Source of the DNA: a virus
UHGV virus genome: UHGV-0014912
DNA: 33,704 bases
Strand: one strand, 5' to 3'
Shown here one piece after another: positions 3,400-26,213 of the stretch. Each line of letters begins with the position of its first letter. The stretch's first letter is position 1. The notes under the pieces were generated by a model. It saw only the letters and a program-made list of their open reading frames with translations, did not search any database and was not told the origin of the DNA. The position numbers were made by a program, and so were the translations under genes.

Positions 3400-3435
3400 T
3401 TTTGTTTCCCTTTGTTGAGTTTTCTTTTATTTATG

Positions 3436-18728: not shown

Positions 18729-18738
18729 CTTTATTTAG
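18729..18738 (-). promoter_or_regulatory. CTAAATAAAG motif overlapping the large terminase stop, upstream of the 18222..18704 gene
   Basis: Exact 10-mer 27 nt upstream of the ATG. Confidence 0.35.
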
Positions 18739-20630
18739 TTAAGCCATCCACGTTTCTTTTGATTGCTTCGTTGTATACGATGCACAGAACGAGCCTGAAC
18801 GCGTTTAGGTTCTTGCTTAACTGGTTCTATTAGCTCTTGCTCTAAGTCTTCAGGAATTTCGACCTCTGCTTTGGAAGCTAGCTTTCTCCACTCGTGAAAT
18901 TTGATTTTCTCTAGAACTTGCAGACGCGCACAATAACCGTAGTTAAAGCAGTCAAGACCTTCGTTTCTGACTCCACCTTGCTTAATAACCCATCTGACAG
19001 TATTACCAGAGCGTTTAAGTTCTTCCGACATTAGCTGTTCGGTATAATCATCTGGAACATCATCAGAGATTTCGACTCTTACAGGCGTATTCTGAACATT
19101 CTTTATGCTTCTGTTTAGTAGCTCGCGAACCATGTCTTTGCCTTTGTTAACTCCAATCATGAACAGTTCATAACCGCCTGTTTTCGTGATTTTCGTTGGC
19201 ACATATGGAGCATCAACTGATGAAGCACCCTTAATAGCGTGTAAGTTTCTCCATTGAGAACAGAAACGATATATTGTTTTTGTTGCTCGACCATTTGAAC
19301 TATCGACGTTCGCCCATGCAAGAGTTAATTTTCTTCCTGAGTCAGTTCTGAAAGTCGCTTTCAGATAAGCAAGAAGGTCTTTATAAGCAGGCGAGTCGAT
19401 AACTTCGGCGTTCATCGTCATGAAAGAGCGATGGTCGAGGATATAAACTGTTTTCTCGTTGTGACCCATCAGTGTTACTTCCAAACGGTCTTGCTGTTGG
19501 TCAACACCCGCAGTTAAAAACAATGTGTCATCTGGAATATTTCTAATACCGATATCAGTTTTTAATTCATCAAGCTTTGAGGACTCCAGTTCTTCGTTTA
19601 AATCGTCAAACGGAATACCGAGAACAGTGTTATAAAACGTTGACAAACTGAAAGTCTGAAAAGCGTCTTTGAAGTCTGCAACGACTGATTTAATACTGGA
19701 CATCGGACTGTACAAACGATTTATATGGAATCCTGCAACATTCGATTCTGGATTAGTCTGAATCCATTCACCTTGTTTTACCGCTCTTGCTCTTTCTCCT
19801 TCTGTGAAATGATGTTCACAAACAGGACATTGAATATAAGCACTGTCGGGATCTGGTAGAGATTTACCGTCTTGTTTCAACCATTCGAATTTAATATTTT
19901 CCCAAATAAGTTCATGCATATGTCCACATTCAGGACATGGCACATGATATTTGCGCTTATCGGAGTTTTCATACTGCGTGTTAATAGCACCGTATTTGCC
20001 AGTAGGAGTTGAACAGATAAAGACACGAGCATCCTCGCCGAAAGTCGTAGCACGTTGCTCGGCTATCATTATCGGGTTGCCTTCTTCGGTGTCTGTTTCT
20101 ACTGCGTCAACTTCGTCTAACAGGAGCAACGGTAATGTCTTGCCTCGTAAGTGAGAAGGGGAGTTCAAACTCATGAAGTACCAAAAGCCACCGTTGCGGA
20201 GCTGAATCTGTGATGTGTTATTAACTGCGTTTCTGTCGTTCTTATCCGTGACTATTCGTTGCATCTCTTCGGATGCGTCAATCATTGGCTTAATCTTGCC
20301 TGATAACCACTGAGTTGTTTCTTTTGCTGTTGACTGTAAAACACCTGCGTTGCCTGGTTCTGTCGCAGACTTATAGAACAACACACCGTTCAGAATCGTT
20401 GTCTTGCCGATCTGTGCAGACGTCATCAGAACGATTTTTTTCTTTCTCTCTTTTATTACATCTATCATCCCGCGCTGGAACTCGAATAATTTCATCGGTT
20501 GTCCTGAGTGCGGACCATCTGGGAATTTCAAGTTAGCTTCGACCCACTCTGATGGTGTGTAGTCCGGTGGTGGAAGCAAGAAACGTTTTGCACGTTTTAG
20601 AATCAATTCTAGTTTTTGTTTGTTTTTCAT
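18735..20630 (-). CDS. Terminase large subunit (lambda GpA family)
   Basis: 631 aa; Walker A-like LMTSAQIGKTT, Walker B-like LLLLDEVD, zinc-ribbon-like CPECGH...CPVCEH, C-terminal nuclease-like region; AGGTGA RBS. Confidence 0.85.
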   Translation of the reverse strand: MKNKQKLELILKRAKRFLLPPPDYTPSEWVEANLKFPDGPHSGQPMKLFEFQRGMIDVIKERKKKIVLMTSAQIGKTTILNGVLFYKSATEPGNAGVLQSTAKETTQWLSGKIKPMIDASEEMQRIVTDKNDRNAVNNTSQIQLRNGGFWYFMSLNSPSHLRGKTLPLLLLDEVDAVETDTEEGNPIMIAEQRATTFGEDARVFICSTPTGKYGAINTQYENSDKRKYHVPCPECGHMHELIWENIKFEWLKQDGKSLPDPDSAYIQCPVCEHHFTEGERARAVKQGEWIQTNPESNVAGFHINRLYSPMSSIKSVVADFKDAFQTFSLSTFYNTVLGIPFDDLNEELESSKLDELKTDIGIRNIPDDTLFLTAGVDQQQDRLEVTLMGHNEKTVYILDHRSFMTMNAEVIDSPAYKDLLAYLKATFRTDSGRKLTLAWANVDSSNGRATKTIYRFCSQWRNLHAIKGASSVDAPYVPTKITKTGGYELFMIGVNKGKDMVRELLNRSIKNVQNTPVRVEISDDVPDDYTEQLMSEELKRSGNTVRWVIKQGGVRNEGLDCFNYGYCARLQVLEKIKFHEWRKLASKAEVEIPEDLEQELIEPVKQEPKRVQARSVHRIQRSNQKKRGWLN

Positions 20631-20775
20631 AAGTCACCTAAGCTAATGAATCCTTTATGGATTCCATCTCTCATGACTCTATTTATGAAAATATCCACAA
20701 TTATTTTCGGAGGTCGCTTGCACCTGGATTTTCGCCTGTTAAAGTTCAATCCATCGAAACACGGGGAATAACGAA

Positions 20776-21216
20776 ATGAAAAACGCATTAACTGTTGAAA
20801 ATAAAATTGCTTCTGAGTTAAACGCTGGTACTGAATTATCAGAACGTAAGCTTGCAGAGAAATTTGAAACAACTCGTTCCGTTGTTTGTCGTGTTAAAGC
20901 GAACATCGAGAAATACACAGTTGTTGAAGCTGTACAGGAAGAAAAACCTGAAGTTAAAAAACTTAATACAGCAGAAGTTATCGACACTGTAAAAGCTGAG
21001 GAGATTACTCACAAAGCTGTAGGACTCGATAATATTGAAAAGCTTCTCGCTAGTAAGTCAGCGAATAAAAAGCCCGCTGAAATTAGCTTGTTAATTTTTA
21101 AATCGGTAAAAGGAGATTTTGAGTTATTCAGTAAGCAAATGAAGGGAAAATCATCGCAGTATATTAAAGACCAATTTTTACGCTCTAAAAATAAACTTGA
21201 TAAGGATTCAAAATGA
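20776..21216 (+). CDS. Putative DNA-binding (HTH) protein, first gene of a three-gene coupled operon
   Basis: 146 aa; N-terminal HTH-like segment (TELSERKLAEKFETTRSVVCRVKAN); transcribed divergently from the large terminase gene. Confidence 0.35.
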   Translation: MKNALTVENKIASELNAGTELSERKLAEKFETTRSVVCRVKANIEKYTVVEAVQEEKPEVKKLNTAEVIDTVKAEEITHKAVGLDNIEKLLASKSANKKPAEISLLIFKSVKGDFELFSKQMKGKSSQYIKDQFLRSKNKLDKDSK

Positions 21217-21311
21217 AAGCTGTTAAAACTGTAATCGCTGTTATCGTTGCTGTTTCTTCTATGTCTGCTAATGGTATCGCGATAGACTTTGATTATTGCG
21301 TTAAGATATGA
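21213..21311 (+). CDS. Small hydrophobic peptide (32 aa), translationally coupled on both sides
   Basis: MKAVKTVIAVIVAVSSMSANGIAIDFDYCVKI; ATGA overlaps with both the upstream stop and the downstream start; below the ORF-track size cutoff. Confidence 0.25.
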   Translation: MKAVKTVIAVIVAVSSMSANGIAIDFDYCVKI

Positions 21312-21556
21312 AATTAGATATCCCACCGACATGGAGACACGATTTTAAGATTTCATCATGTGGCAAGTACATAACGTTAGAACTCTTTATACCGAGTGTC
21401 TCCGCGATGGTGGGATATCGTGCAAAGAGGATTACAATTCGTGCTATGTTTGATGCTTTTCAGTTTAATGATCGCAAGACGCAACAAACGTTAATTCGCT
21501 TGCTTGAAGAACTGAACAAAAAATATTATTCAATAATTGAGATATTTCCAAAATGA
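21308..21556 (+). CDS. Hypothetical protein
   Basis: 82 aa, ATGA-coupled to the small peptide ORF and followed by a terminator. Confidence 0.3.
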   Translation: MKLDIPPTWRHDFKISSCGKYITLELFIPSVSAMVGYRAKRITIRAMFDAFQFNDRKTQQTLIRLLEELNKKYYSIIEIFPK

Positions 21557-21561
21557 CAAAA

Positions 21562-21585
21562 GGGAGCTTAGTGCTTCCTTTTTTA
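21562..21585. terminator. Bidirectional terminator between convergent genes
   Basis: GGGAGC / GCTTCC stem (one G-U pair) followed by TTTTTT on the plus strand and preceded by AAAA. Confidence 0.5.
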
Positions 21586-21882
21586 GATATCACCCGTCAT
21601 AACATCATTAAAGAATTTTCTCGCCTGAGCATTAGTACCCATAAAAGCGATGAACTCACCATCCAGAACAATCTGTATAGCGCGTTTGATAAAATCATCT
21701 TGAACACGTTTCGATAATATTATATCAACCGGTCTTGGATCCATATCAGTTAAATCTGGATGTTCCTGAATCGGCCTGATAATAGATTCTGACTGACGAA
21801 CAATTATCGGCATTTCGTGTCTGTGTTTTTCCAGAAATTCAATATCGAATTCTGTTTTACCGTCTAGCAAAAGTTGTTTCAT
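21583..21882 (-). CDS. Hypothetical protein (last gene of the HEG-lipoprotein operon)
   Basis: 99 aa; start overlaps the lipoprotein stop (ATGA). Confidence 0.3.
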   Translation of the reverse strand: MKQLLLDGKTEFDIEFLEKHRHEMPIIVRQSESIIRPIQEHPDLTDMDPRPVDIILSKRVQDDFIKRAIQIVLDGEFIAFMGTNAQARKFFNDVMTGDI

Positions 21883-22091
21883 AGTTTTCCTTCATTTAAT
21901 TTTCTGCAACTGTCAATATCGAGTTTAGCTGTTTCTGGATTATACTCTGTGAGATTACAGATAACACCTTGCTGTTTGAATGTTTCAACGTTGATATTAC
22001 TGTTAATACATCCTATCAGAGAAAAAGCTCCGACAATCGTCAGAGCCATGATAATAGGTTTAAAAAGTTGTTTTGCTTGTTCGTTATTCAT
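21879..22091 (-). CDS. Small outer-membrane-type lipoprotein (candidate superinfection-exclusion, Cor/Llp-like)
   Basis: 70 aa; signal peptide with lipobox LIGC (PIIMALTIVGAFSLIGC); mature part about 45 aa; TAATG-coupled to the upstream HEG. Confidence 0.4.
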   Translation of the reverse strand: MNNEQAKQLFKPIIMALTIVGAFSLIGCINSNINVETFKQQGVICNLTEYNPETAKLDIDSCRKLNEGKL

Positions 22092-22699
22092 TACGCTGCC
22101 TCTCTTAAACGACGTGCTTGTTGTGCTAGTTTCATTTTCTCGATAGTTTCAGCAGAACGAGTTCCGATAACACGACCTTTATTTGCTTTGCCGATTTTCT
22201 TTTTTGTTTCTTCTGACTGAACAGAACCGGTTTTTGCTTTTGAGATTTTTCTACGTGTCTCTAGTGAAACAACATGACCAGTCATGCTATCAGAGATTTT
22301 CTTGTTTCTTTCTTTAATTTGTTGTTCTGTCATGGATTTAAAAACGTTGCCTCCCGCTTGTCCTGATGAAATATTTAATAAGTTAGCTTGCTGTTGTCTT
22401 GCGTGTTTAATGCAAGCAGTTTCGAAGTCATACGCTTCCTGTTCGTCTGTGAAAGTCTTTAGAACAACTTTAAACACAACGTCTGTCGGTTTCATTTCTG
22501 CTAGTTTCTCACGAACTAAACGACCGCTGCCTATATAAAGCATGTCAGGCTGTTCATTGTAAGATTGTTTGCCGTAATAAACGTAACTGACATCATTGAT
22601 GCGAAAAACGGTTTTATAAACTGCGTAAGCTTTGATTTCAGCGTTACGGATATCAGAACGGGTTTTGTAAGTTACGTTGTTAATAGTGCGCTTGTGCAT
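22091..22699 (-). CDS. GIY-YIG homing endonuclease with NUMOD3 repeats (Seg / I-TevI-like)
   Basis: 202 aa; N-terminal GIY-YIG-like AVYKTVFRINDVSYVYYGKQ; three C-terminal NUMOD3-like repeats (GHVVSLETRRKISKAKTG, SVQSEETKKKIGKANKG, RVIGTRSAETIEKMKLAQ). Confidence 0.7.
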   Translation of the reverse strand: MHKRTINNVTYKTRSDIRNAEIKAYAVYKTVFRINDVSYVYYGKQSYNEQPDMLYIGSGRLVREKLAEMKPTDVVFKVVLKTFTDEQEAYDFETACIKHARQQQANLLNISSGQAGGNVFKSMTEQQIKERNKKISDSMTGHVVSLETRRKISKAKTGSVQSEETKKKIGKANKGRVIGTRSAETIEKMKLAQQARRLREAA

Positions 22700-23117
22700 T
22701 TGAGTTTCCTTAAAGTTAAAAATAAAAGTGAAAGAGATTTACATTCAGTTGTTTTTCTGAATTACACTTGTATTTAGTAACTAGGTTTATCTATAACCTG
22801 ATAAAAACAGGGAATAGCACTAAATGATCAAGGAACACTCCTATTAAATTAACGTTTGTTAATAAATCCTAGGACGCATCAGGTTGAAACCAGATAGCAA
22901 TATGAACAGGAGTAACATCAAGGTCGGTTAATGCAGCAGGATAGATCCTAGAAAGAACCTGATAACAGCTTGAACATAACGAGAAAGGGCGCTAGCCCGT
23001 CGAAAGCTCGCTTGCGAGATTGAGACTAACTAACGAATTCAGATTTAATTAGCGATCATTAAGTTTATTAGATATCCAGTGATCAGTATAATGCAGTTAA
23101 CCAGTAATCAATATTAT

Positions 23118-23337
23118 CCAGATCTGAAAACAAGATAGGCGCAGCCGCGCGAAGCGCTAATAATATTATCTAGAAAAAACATTATTAACTTAGTCAAACT
23201 TGATTATCTGGATTACTGAGTGATCATAACAATGTTGACTTAGTGTTATCTGTCGCGCTTACGCGCTAATGTTATTAATTGGGGCTAACGCCCTCTCGTC
23301 GAGCAAGCTCTCCTCGCTATCTGGTTTTCAGATCTGG
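23118..23337. repeat. 21-bp imperfect inverted repeat pair (23118..23138 and 23317..23337) bracketing a ~180 bp segment with iteron-like TATC(C/T)(A/T)G copies
   Basis: CCAGATCTGAAAACAAGATAG versus CTATCTGGTTTTCAGATCTGG (two mismatches); six TATCCAG / TATCTGG / TATCTAG / TATCTGT motifs between 23073 and 23324. Confidence 0.5.
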
Positions 23338-23429
23338 TTCTTTCCTTGTTTTTAAAACCTTCCATATCATCTTTATCCAATTGTTCTTATAGGGAGATTT
23401 TTCTCAGTATCCATGCGCTTCTCCGACTT

Positions 23430-23471
23430 GCATCGATGCGCTATCGATGCGTTTTGCTGTACATCGATGCA
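23430..23471. promoter_or_regulatory. Three tandem operator-like palindromes (GCATCGATGC core)
   Basis: GCATCGATGC at 23430..23439 (perfect 10-bp palindrome) with related copies ending at 23450 and 23470, about 90-130 bp upstream of the 23562 gene. Confidence 0.45.
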
Positions 23472-23529
23472 CTTTGTTCCGATTGTTTTTGATCATTTTG
23501 TGCTGAGATAAGTTTACGACTTCTCTCCT

Positions 23530-23537
23530 TATAAATA
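23530..23537 (+). promoter_or_regulatory. TATAAATA element (T4-late-promoter-like) upstream of the 23562..24008 gene
   Basis: Exact TATAAATA 25 nt upstream of the ATG, followed by AAGGAG RBS. Confidence 0.35.
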
Positions 23538-23561
23538 TTCTTTGAACAAAGGAGAATCCTA

Positions 23562-24008
23562 ATGAGCTACTATTTTTGTAACGTCGGTGAAGTTTTCGAC
23601 GGAGAAATTTCTATTCTTCGAAAGCGTGATATTTTCACAAACACGATTATCGGAGATGTATCAACCCAAAAAGAAAAAATGAAAAAATGTTCACCTAGTA
23701 TTCAGAGACATTTAGAAAAAAGTCAGAATCTTGATATCGGTTGCGTCTATGTTTTAAAGCTTGAGAACGAAAAATGGTATGTTGGATATACTAAAAACAT
23801 ATTAGGAAGAATTAAAGAACATGCTATGGGTATTGGTGCTGAATGGACAAAAACTAACAAACCTATTCAACTTGTTAATTTTTTCATCGGAGATCATAAA
23901 ATTGAGAGAAGATTTACTGAAGAATTAATGATTAAGTTCGGCTGGCAAAATGTTAGAGGTGCAAGATGGACTGCTAACGAGATTCTTTGTCCTATGATGT
24001 TCAGATAA
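23562..24008 (+). CDS. GIY-YIG nuclease-domain protein with a ~60 aa N-terminal extension
   Basis: 148 aa; GCVYVLKLENEKWYVGYTKNILGRIKEH fits the GIY-(~10)-YVG pattern of small GIY-YIG proteins. Confidence 0.55.
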   Translation: MSYYFCNVGEVFDGEISILRKRDIFTNTIIGDVSTQKEKMKKCSPSIQRHLEKSQNLDIGCVYVLKLENEKWYVGYTKNILGRIKEHAMGIGAEWTKTNKPIQLVNFFIGDHKIERRFTEELMIKFGWQNVRGARWTANEILCPMMFR

Positions 24009-24182
24009 TTTTTCGAGAGTTTGTTTACTATCCCGGTGATGGGTATAAATACTAGTATAAGTTAAAGATTCGCACTGATTGAGAGATTTCTTCCTCGTTT
24101 GTTTACTCTCAGTCATTACGATTATAAAATAACTATGAAAGCAAGTTCATTTAGAAAATCCAAATAAAATTCCTTAAAGTTT

Positions 24183-24208
24183 GAAGCACTCTTCGGAGTG
24201 CTCTTTTT
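24183..24208 (+). terminator. Strong intrinsic terminator
   Basis: AGCACTC-TTCG-GAGTGCT stem-loop followed by CTTTTTTC. Confidence 0.7.
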
Positions 24209-24394
24209 TCAACATTACAAAAAAGGCAACCCATGAAATTTATTCCAAATAAGTTCGAAATTGAATCTCGATTAGATGCTGGTGAAACTTTTCAGCAGAT
24301 TGCAGAATCAAAGAAAATGAATAAAGCAACGCTGTATAACGCTTGCAAAAAACGCAACATCAGAACGACTAAACAGAAATAAAAGGAAAACAAA

Positions 24395-25312
24395 ATGAAA
24401 TTTTCAGTATTTGATAACTTAAACGGAACCACTAACGTTAGCTTGAATAAAAAAATTGTTAAGACTAACGAAATGACCAACAACAGAAACAAACTGAAAG
24501 CATTTGTCGGAAGTTTTACCGATATTCATCGCAACGTTAGAGCAAAAATGCTAACTAAAATTGAAAATGCTTTGACTGTAAAAGATATGCGTAACTTTGA
24601 AATCGGTATGTCCGAACTGAATGATAAACCTGCTATCGTTGCTTATACAACTGATAAAGCTGTTATCGTTTGTTCAGAAGCAAATCGTTGGAAAGCTCTT
24701 GGTTCAGACCTGACTTTAGTTCATGCGAAAGAATCCCAAAACTTTGTTCAGCAATATATTGGTGATTTTATCGAGATTAAAGAAGAAATTGAATTTCCGA
24801 CTGAACAGAAAGTTGACGTTATTTCTAACGAGTTGGAAGAATTGAGAAAAGAAATTGAGAAAATGAAAAAAGAAAAGGCAGAACATAAAAAACTTATCTC
24901 TGCCTATGCGAAAAATTATAAGGGTGATGAATTATCTTTTGATGAAGACCTGACGATTATCAAACATCAGAACAGTATTAAATCAGAAGTTGGCGCTTCC
25001 GAAATTTCTAACGAATCAACTGTATTTAGTGTAACAGAAACAGCAGAAAATTTAAACGACGACCTGATCGTTTCTATCGATCAATCAAACAAGGAAAATA
25101 AAATGCCTTTATATGATTATTCCTGCGAATGCGGAAACTATTTCGAAAAAACAAGAAAAATCTCTGAACGTTCTAGCGCTGAATGTCCTGAATGCCATAA
25201 AGAAGCAAAACAGCAACTGACAGCACCAGCCGGAATTCAAAACGGTTATTACGAACAAGGCAGAATGTTCATTAACAGAAACAAACAAACGTTTAAAACT
25301 GCTACACGATAA
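24395..25312 (+). CDS. Coiled-coil protein with a C-terminal FmdB-type zinc-ribbon domain
   Basis: 305 aa; C-terminal MPLYDYSCECGNYFEKTRKISERSSAECPECHK (CxC...CxxC); internal AAGGAAA RBS before that Met suggests possible separate expression of the zinc-ribbon part. Confidence 0.4.
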   Translation: MKFSVFDNLNGTTNVSLNKKIVKTNEMTNNRNKLKAFVGSFTDIHRNVRAKMLTKIENALTVKDMRNFEIGMSELNDKPAIVAYTTDKAVIVCSEANRWKALGSDLTLVHAKESQNFVQQYIGDFIEIKEEIEFPTEQKVDVISNELEELRKEIEKMKKEKAEHKKLISAYAKNYKGDELSFDEDLTIIKHQNSIKSEVGASEISNESTVFSVTETAENLNDDLIVSIDQSNKENKMPLYDYSCECGNYFEKTRKISERSSAECPECHKEAKQQLTAPAGIQNGYYEQGRMFINRNKQTFKTATR

Positions 25313-25330
25313 AGGAGCATCGCGCTCCTT
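25312..25330. terminator. Bidirectional terminator between convergent genes
   Basis: GGAGC-ATCGC-GCTCC stem-loop flanked by AAA and TTAATTAATTT. Confidence 0.45.
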
Positions 25331-25877
25331 AATTAATTTCTATCATGTCTTGTGATTGTTCAGATTCTTTTTCGTCTTCTGATTCGTCCTGTTCGTTCGG
25401 ATCTTCGTTTAGTTCCTGTTCGAACAGTTCAACACCGTTTAGAGTATCGTCGATAATTCTTTTCAGTGTTTCTTTCACCGTCTGAACATCAGAAGCTGAT
25501 TCCAAAATTTCGATAGCATGTTTATTCGGTATTAATCGCATAACAGATTTTAAGTCAGCACAAAAACGGTTCAACTCAGATTGAACATATTCAACTGGAA
25601 TTAATTGCTCCGATTTTTCTTGCGCTGTGTATTGAGCCAAGTCTGCTTTTGCTTTCTGCTCGCGGAGTTTTTCTTTCTCCATTTCATCGCGAACGGACAT
25701 ATTACGCATCGGGTTAATTTTGTTCTCAATTATCCAACGAGTGCCTTCGTCTTCTGGAATACCAGAGGGATTATCTGAATACGGAAGTCCTTCTGCACGC
25801 CAGCTCTTGATAGCGTTCAGGGTATAACCATAACGACGCGCCATATCAGTCATTGAAATATATGTTTTTCTTGCCAT
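25329..25877 (-). CDS. Putative terminase small subunit (lambda Nu1-like winged HTH)
   Basis: 182 aa (lambda Nu1 is 181 aa); N-terminal block SMTDMARRYGYTLNAIKSWRAEGLPY resembles Nu1 QLADIFGASIRTIQNWQEQGMPV; acidic C-terminus; a MerR-like regulator is the alternative. Confidence 0.45.
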   Translation of the reverse strand: MARKTYISMTDMARRYGYTLNAIKSWRAEGLPYSDNPSGIPEDEGTRWIIENKINPMRNMSVRDEMEKEKLREQKAKADLAQYTAQEKSEQLIPVEYVQSELNRFCADLKSVMRLIPNKHAIEILESASDVQTVKETLKRIIDDTLNGVELFEQELNEDPNEQDESEDEKESEQSQDMIEIN

Positions 25878-26213
25878 TGTTTTTCTCCAATCGTAGAGGG
25901 AATAAGGGTTTAACTGTATTTATCAGTCAGCGTCAGGGAATCCTCCGGGATATTTATGTCAACTGGAATGAACTGCACTGTAAATAATCCCTCACAGGTG
26001 AAATTTAAATCGAGCGCTTGAAACATCTCGGTGTTTCAGAAGTCCCAGAGTAACTATTATTTTTTGTTAGAGGGGGGCAGAAGATGAGTCGTTAAAACTT
26101 ATTTAAGCAATATCATTAATGATTTATATTTGGCTGCGTTTTAGGCTAATCAGCAGCCAAATTTTTAATTGTCGATGAAACGCCAGTATCGCTAAAAATA
26201 GAGCTATATAAAA

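Follow-up and report, generated by a model that had tools for sequence, protein, structure and literature searches.

A regulator-led, probably accessory operon beside the large terminase gene of a ybiT-site prophage, and the 32-residue deletion scar within it

Three coupled reading frames and a deletion scar

The virus genome UHGV-0014912, the whole of which was analysed here and is referred to as the window (33,704 nucleotides (nt)), corresponds to a ~33-kb prophage with a serine recombinase that is inserted beside ybiT of Escherichia coli. Next to its large terminase gene, terL, the window carries three open reading frames (ORFs) on the plus strand, i.e. the gene for a helix-turn-helix (HTH) protein of 146 amino acids (aa), which leads the operon (20776-21216), a 32-aa ORF with the sequence MKAVKTVIAVIVAVSSMSANGIAIDFDYCVKI (21213-21311) and an 82-aa gene (21308-21556). 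As originally predicted, the three ORFs are chained by ATGA overlaps, which we confirm at both junctions, and the operon is divergent from terL (18735-20630, minus strand; GpA ATPase and nuclease, PF05876/PF20454 on orthologues), with a gap of 145 bp between the two. A terminator had also been predicted to close the operon, and a real hairpin indeed lies between the stop codon of the 82-aa gene and the convergent gene that follows (21558-21582). The hairpin has a folding energy of -12.9 kcal/mol (z -3.1 versus shuffled sequences), is followed by a U-run, and its 25 nt are 96% conserved in the relative L008 despite different flanking genes there; a strict terminator scan made no call for it, and we regard it as a probable bidirectional terminator.

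The operon as such is real, and its most eye-catching feature, the short hydrophobic ORF in its middle, is an artefact of gene loss. Judged by alignment to its relatives, the 32-aa ORF is an in-frame chimera left by a deletion of ~1.1 kb and no conserved gene. Codons 1-20 (21213-21272, plus strand) correspond to the signal peptide, along with the ribosome-binding site, of a gene that encodes a 209-aa YadA-anchor protein in relatives, all 20 of these 20 residues being identical. Codons 21-32 and the stop codon (21273-21311, plus strand) correspond to the 3' end of a gene for a 154-aa exported protein, i.e. the last 12 residues of the ORF are the C-terminus of that protein (...GIAIDFDYCAKI). Both parent genes are intact in L006-L010, where the 146-aa protein is 95% identical. 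In these relatives the 209-aa parent, which begins with MKAVKTVIAVIVAVSSMSANAYDSS and ends in a YadA_anchor domain (E 1.3e-12), is ATGA-coupled to the HTH gene, and the 154-aa signal-peptide gene lies downstream of it. The window aligns to L006/L008 (5726-6496) at 96% from 20501 to 21271 and then, from 21270 to 21307, to L006 7613-7650 at 92%, i.e. 1116 nt further on in the relative; the two segments overlap by the 2 nt 'AA' at the junction (21270-21271), which is in frame. Compared with L006, a 123-aa signal-peptide gene is missing as well, and the breakpoint shares TTGCG; a single deletion is sufficient if the ancestor had the L008-type arrangement.

Seventeen contigs, which stem from different samples, contain the 32-aa sequence without any change. 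Six of these loci were compared with the window and differ from it by 0-5 single nucleotide polymorphisms over 825 nt, and the contigs thus represent one recent lineage rather than independent conservation. The ORF is confined to this near-clonal lineage, and the other relatives have either the full-length genes or nothing at this position. Read directly, the peptide is composed of an n-region (MKAVK), an h-region (TVIAVIVAV) and a c-region (SSMSA-N-G), in which the cleavage motif A-N-A of the parent has become A-N-G at the junction. With this n-h-c layout and a small-x-small motif its N-terminus is a predicted Sec signal peptide. The hydrophobic core comprises about 9-14 residues, below the ~18 needed to span a membrane, and the YadA_anchor β-barrel domain that the signal peptide precedes in the parent gene is deleted from the window. 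Of the two options in the original prediction, which had called the peptide signal-peptide or membrane-toxin-like, the former is thus borne out by the 20/20 match, whereas the latter conflicts with the chimeric origin of the ORF and its short core.

The stump may nevertheless matter for the translation of its neighbour. The 82-aa gene has no usable Shine-Dalgarno sequence of its own in its start-codon context and is therefore probably translated via coupling at the ATGA. The strong ribosome-binding site AAGGA, which belonged to the lost YadA-anchor gene, appears to be kept by the stump, and ribosomes that end at the ATGA of the stump, atop the 82-aa start, may re-initiate there, by which the 82-aa gene would stay expressed. 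The stump peptide itself would presumably be exported, clipped after A-N-G and degraded.

The lead regulator, its small partner and the cargo slot

The 146-aa protein had been described as HTH-like, and this description finds some support in a match to the GntR HTH family of Pfam (PF00392; E 1.1e-4, 22.3 bits), which is under the 27-bit cut-off, and in the three-helix N-terminal domain of its AlphaFold model. The protein consists of a conserved HTH region (residues ~1-48), a variable linker that is predicted to be disordered (49-85) and a conserved helical domain (86-139), and the model as a whole is a two-domain helical structure with no β-wing. As full domains, the HTH and the C-terminal part cover residues 1-51 and 86-145. 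Its fold matches are generic HTH proteins, the best of which include region 4 of σ factors, and a profile search against the PDB gave nothing significant, with a GntR-protein match at E 0.11. The family is small, i.e. it comprises 22 clusters at 90% identity, all from enterobacterial prophages, with just 8 representatives among 1.84 billion proteins, and T4-like phages have homologues in their early regions as well. The ratio of nonsynonymous to synonymous substitution rates (dN/dS) of the HTH gene is 0.12-0.29, indicating purifying selection. The C-terminal domain of ~55 residues (86-139) is an unannotated module that also ends proteins with an SprT-like metalloprotease domain in T4-like Cronobacter and Citrobacter phages (P0041-P0043; e.g. 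Cronobacter phage S13, 151197-151901).

Profile searches had been suggested for both flanking proteins along with the original prediction, and, apart from the sub-threshold GntR match of the 146-aa protein, they returned nothing significant: the 82-aa protein has no match in Pfam, PHROGs, PADLOC or the PDB. A single-sequence search with the 82-aa protein retrieved near-identical copies of itself only, and a scan of IMG/VR yielded no match. Its AlphaFold model is unreliable (predicted local distance difference test score 58) and is therefore too poor for a fold search. The 82-aa protein is a member of an orphan family, the 14 clusters of which all fall within this prophage group and lack annotation, and its gene is under purifying selection (dN/dS 0.06-0.27). 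In L018 the gene had seemed damaged, as only 49 aa are called, but the full ORF is intact.

The genomic context of the relatives was obtained from protein-level and exact-sequence look-ups; a megablast search with the locus gave no near-DNA match in collections of phages, plasmids and complete E. coli genomes. All relatives examined have the HTH gene, and in all of them it diverges from terL. A gene of 81-86 aa, which belongs to the 82-aa family, is found downstream of it in relatives, usually with stop/start coupling, and between the two lies a variable number of cargo genes for exported proteins, among them the 209-aa YadA-anchor protein, which is a mini-autotransporter, signal-peptide proteins of 154, 124 and 123 aa, and a 302-aa lipoprotein. 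Homology among the 154-, 124- and 123-aa proteins was not established (BLASTP E 0.032 and 6.5). In the commonest form the HTH gene is followed by the 124-aa signal-peptide gene and an 84-aa gene, all ATGA-coupled. L006 has the order HTH-209-154-123-82, L007-L010 have HTH-209-(34)-154-84-89, the Citrobacter relatives L034/L035 have HTH-81-89, and L037 has HTH-82-59. The 82-aa homologue is absent from several lineages that keep the HTH gene: L005 and L025 have HTH-59, E. coli L011-L015 likewise have HTH-59, with a reverse transcriptase and a TIR gene farther along, and in L039 the HTH gene is followed by the 302-aa lipoprotein gene, whose product has a weak LprI-like match.

Altogether, the stretch that is delimited by the conserved HTH gene on one side and by the conserved hairpin or NUMOD3 gene on the other has at least seven gene contents. 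Variable cargo in a fixed position between conserved phage genes, with a promoter and a terminator of its own, is what characterizes a moron or accessory operon of a prophage, and by its sequence organization, which includes conserved promoter- and terminator-like signals, the locus qualifies as one. Because the content after the HTH gene varies among relatives, the core of the operon is the HTH gene, often together with a member of the 81-86-aa family. We consider the locus to be probably a regulator-led accessory operon of the ~33-kb ldtB-ybiT serine-recombinase prophage, with the 32-aa ORF as its deletion scar, i.e. an ordinary accessory locus of uncharacterised families.

Other readings of the three genes fare considerably worse. 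The original prediction of a toxin or exclusion module would make the 32-aa ORF a dedicated membrane toxin or superinfection-exclusion peptide under the control of the HTH protein, and several features speak for it, i.e. the small size and hydrophobicity of the ORF, its good ribosome-binding site, its coupling to a regulator gene and a frame that is intact in 17 contigs. However, it fuses the ends of two unrelated genes through a deletion, it is missing outside one near-clonal lineage, its hydrophobic stretch is an n-h-c signal peptide too short for a transmembrane toxin helix, and no defence or toxin match was found in PADLOC, Pfam or PHROGs; we give this reading next to no credence. What survives of the exclusion idea is that the slot holds exported or surface-protein cargo in relatives, which is deleted in the window. 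The 146- and 82-aa proteins might also form a pair similar to type II toxin-antitoxin systems, in which an HTH antitoxin would be followed by a small basic toxin. An HTH gene, a small gene and ATGA coupling correspond to the typical order of such pairs, the two genes are directly adjacent in L034/L035 and L037, and the 82-aa protein is basic by direct reading. Yet neither protein matches a toxin or antitoxin family in Pfam, PHROGs or PADLOC, and in many lineages one to four unrelated genes stand between the pair, an arrangement that is hard to reconcile with tightly balanced synthesis of antitoxin and toxin; as, moreover, the HTH gene is kept without an 82-aa homologue in L005, L011-L015, L025 and L039, we regard such a pair as very unlikely. 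Another candidate role of the 146-aa protein is that of a small terminase or cos-binding subunit similar to Nu1 of phage λ, with the intergenic region as packaging site. This candidate was rejected on finding a true gene of the TerS family elsewhere in the window (25329-25877, minus strand; phrog_57 'terminase small subunit', E 1.2e-20). Furthermore, the 146-aa gene is opposite in strand to terL in every relative, its product matches no TerS profile in Pfam or PHROGs, and its homologues lie in early regions of T4-like phages that have their own gp16-type TerS, which leaves a packaging role highly improbable.

The divergent control region and a candidate late-gene box

The control region of 145 bp between terL and the HTH operon (20631-20775) was aligned for seven relatives, with a mean column identity of 78%. 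Direct reading and this alignment point to a promoter-like element of the extended -10 type for the HTH operon, TTGCAC-N16-(TGt)TAAAGT (20718-20745, plus strand), of which CTTGCA (20717-20722) and TGTTAAAGT (20737-20745) are invariant across the relatives. We infer that the -35 element TTGCAC, the 16-nt spacer and the extended -10 element TGtTAAAGT act as the promoter of the HTH operon; a strict σ70 scan called no promoter in the control region, the -35 element of the candidate being below its criterion. A palindrome, GAATCC-N5-GGATTC, had also been pointed out in this region. It is present as GAATCC-TTTAT-GGATTC (20648-20664), where it would fall in the 5' leader of terL, but it is not above chance level. 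Perfect 6+6 inverted repeats with a spacer of 0-10 nt occur 138 times in the window, i.e. ~0.6 times per 145 bp, and 29% of all 145-bp windows hold at least one. An arm of the palindrome is already broken in 95%-identical relatives, and in L003, L005 and L025 the coding sequence of terL extends over the site. On the repeat statistics and the lack of conservation, the palindrome was rejected as an operator.

A different element of the control region is conserved and recurs in the window. The box TCATAAATAGAGT (20676-20688, minus strand), read on the terL strand, is invariant in all relatives, and in the seven-relative alignment both TnTATTTATGAA (20678-20689) and the TCATAAATA box are invariant. 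With at most one mismatch TCATAAATAnAGT occurs three times in the window, versus 0.40 expected. The sequence CATAAATA has five copies in the window, all five of them intergenic and each oriented toward the next gene, i.e. toward the genes for the tail chaperone (directly after a terminator hairpin), TerL, TerS, the distal-tail protein and the lysozyme. As 8-mers of the same composition are intergenic 15% of the time, the probability of this arrangement is about 9e-5. Boxes of the form (C/G)ATAAATA are located at 3428-3435, 20680-20687, 25917-25924, 25951-25958, 28245-28252 and 28265-28272, and the 74%-identical element of E. coli L3Cip3 retains copies at orthologous sites. Taken together, the distribution of the (C/G)ATAAATA box suggests that it is a probable late-gene promoter or operator of the element.

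Late promoters of phage T4 have the sequence TATAAATA and depend on gp55. The box matches this sequence at 7 of 8 positions and, as in T4, precedes each late transcription unit. The element differs from the T4 system in being a temperate prophage of 33 kb for which no gp55 homologue was found, and its box could equally be an operator half-site. The 146-aa protein was considered as a gp55-like factor and rejected, since a comparison of its family with T4 gp55 by hhalign showed no similarity (probability 0.1%) and a tblastn search of the whole element with gp55 had no match.

How the 146-aa protein would act on this region can be read in two ways. Made from the extended -10 promoter, it may be a transcription regulator that acts on the shared 145-bp control region, and by analogy with λ cI-rexAB we think that repression of the structural operon during lysogeny is more likely than activation, because the HTH gene leads a moron-type cargo operon from a host-type promoter. 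Alternatively, it could be not a repressor but a positive factor for the late genes, by which the CATAAATA promoters would be turned on. The late-gene boxes are poor σ70 -10 elements and therefore probably need a dedicated factor, they resemble the T4 late promoter TATAAATA, region 4 of σ factors is among the best fold matches of the protein, and homologues are present in T4-like phages. Against this, the promoter of the HTH gene itself looks constitutive and host-type, the gene heads a cargo operon of the moron type, which is typically expressed in the lysogen, and there is neither similarity to gp55 by hhalign nor a gp55-like ORF in the element. We regard an activator as unlikely. More speculative still is that the 146-aa protein, perhaps with the 82-aa protein as a partner, is a dedicated factor that either reads or blocks the (C/G)ATAAATA boxes throughout the element, to which we assign a rather low probability. 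If this were true, a small temperate element that encodes no gp55-type σ factor would have a T4-late-like promoter set, which would amount to a new switch of late transcription, the DNA-binding module of which occurs in T4-like phages, too, as a fusion to SprT-like proteases.

The surrounding prophage and likeness to known systems

The right end of the window carries a large serine recombinase gene (30417-31922, minus strand) and, as its neighbour, an ABC-F gene with a GC content of 53%, the product of which is 100% identical to E. coli YbiT. A 74%-identical element is located between ldtB and ybiT in E. coli L3Cip3 (L025/L026, NZ_CP062211, about 1497200-1533430); it spans ~36 kb, two inserted copies of IS3 included. 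Hosts of this ybiT-site prophage group, a prophage family that is uncharacterised, are E. coli, Citrobacter, Enterobacter and Kluyvera. The structural block extends over ~20 kb on the minus strand, from 20630 down to 301, with terL as its first gene, and encodes TerL, a head-tail joining protein, the portal, an S78 protease-capsid fusion, a tail fibre, the major tail protein, a J-like tip protein, endonuclease VII and the tape-measure protein. Distal-tail and tail genes (28270-29492, plus strand) are set apart from the main tail block. The element thus has a full set of head, tail, terminase and lysozyme genes plus the serine recombinase; no match to a replication protein, a CI/Cro-type repressor or a holin was found among the ORFs scanned with Pfam or PHROGs. 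By TerL, the best match among cultured phages is Escherichia phage DCP80 (51% identity). DCP80 (L001, PQ671644, 1-9650) is the sole cultured-phage relative of the head module, with the same gene order, and its record of 141 kb is classed as a T4-like Gaprivervirus, an odd class for a phage with a gpA-type terminase.

The terS gene shares the strand of terL and lies 4.7 kb upstream of it, and the accessory DNA in the gap includes the three-ORF operon. The gap (20631-25328) also holds opposite-strand genes and two GIY-YIG/NUMOD3 homing-endonuclease-like genes (22091-22699, minus strand; 23562-24008, plus strand). Most relatives have the 202-aa NUMOD3 gene at a fixed position, and likewise the small lipoprotein-like gene that follows it (21879-22091). 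The gene for a 305-aa zinc-ribbon protein is directly preceded by a 49-aa ORF (24233-24382, plus strand) with a clearly HTH-like sequence (RLDAGETFQQIAESKKMNKATLYNACKK). A 49-aa gene is called at the corresponding place in several relatives, and the ORF may encode a second small regulator. Beyond terS, a TIR-domain protein is encoded at 26214-27110 (minus strand). It is of the CAP12/Pycsar type (E 4.8e-38) and matches the PADLOC candidate defence system PDC-S35 (E 9e-71), and a 99-aa ORF (27110-27409, minus strand) is coupled upstream of its gene. In E. coli relatives the same accessory region contains a 584-aa reverse-transcriptase gene in addition to the TIR gene.

Between the two NUMOD3 genes ~860 nt (22700-23561) have no credible ORF. 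The core of this stretch (about 23025-23505) is ~74% conserved in all relatives, even in those with other cargo. The stretch contains the invariant sequence TATAATGCAGTTA, the GC-rich hairpins GCGCGAAGCGC and CGCGCTTACGCGC, three ATCGATGC boxes (23432, 23443 and 23463), which are the only copies in the window, inverted CAGATCTG repeats, and six GATC sites in 511 nt. A search of Rfam gave no match in 20500-24500, i.e. for the locus and the nearby non-coding region. Candidate roles for this non-coding stretch are those of an origin, a cluster of operators or a packaging site.

For this prophage family, the analysis defines a slot for surface and periplasmic protein cargo that adjoins defence genes, two conserved proteins without functional annotation, i.e. 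the 146-aa HTH protein and the 82-aa protein, and a candidate motif for late-gene control. More generally, it calls for caution, as a short hydrophobic ORF that lies between coupled genes can turn out to be an orphaned signal peptide.

The closest analogies to the operon are found among regulator genes that are co-transcribed with accessory genes, such as λ cI-rexA-rexB, and other moron or lysogenic-conversion operons of prophages are comparable. Like these, the locus is a regulator-led operon with accessory genes downstream, its cargo is swappable, and its slot borders late and packaging genes. However, the 146-aa protein has no sequence or domain relationship to λ CI, i.e. it has no S24 peptidase domain and a different HTH. 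The cargo of the relatives, which is deleted in the window, consists of exported or surface proteins rather than RexAB, and the 146-aa protein is a putative repressor. With GntR regulators the 146-aa protein shares a similar N-terminal HTH, and some homologues are automatically named GntR. It differs from them in scoring below the Pfam cut-off, in having no predicted wing strands, and in that no effector-binding or oligomerisation domain (FadR, HutC, MocR, YtrA) was found, the helical domain of ~55 residues shared with SprT-like proteins being present instead.

The lost cargo and the scar have their own counterparts. Hok, TisB, Ibs and Ldr are type I or small hydrophobic toxic peptides, to which the 32-aa ORF is similar in its small size and hydrophobic stretch. 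Unlike theirs, this stretch is an inherited Sec signal peptide, and the ORF is not conserved as a unit and is not known to have an antisense RNA as its partner. Eib proteins are located on prophages, and the parent of the stump is likewise prophage-encoded, with a signal peptide and a C-terminal YadA_anchor. EibG is a YadA-like trimeric autotransporter of the Eib group (PMC13534694). The 209-aa parent is shorter than the Eib proteins (about 400-500 aa), and of this parent the window keeps only the signal peptide of 20 residues.

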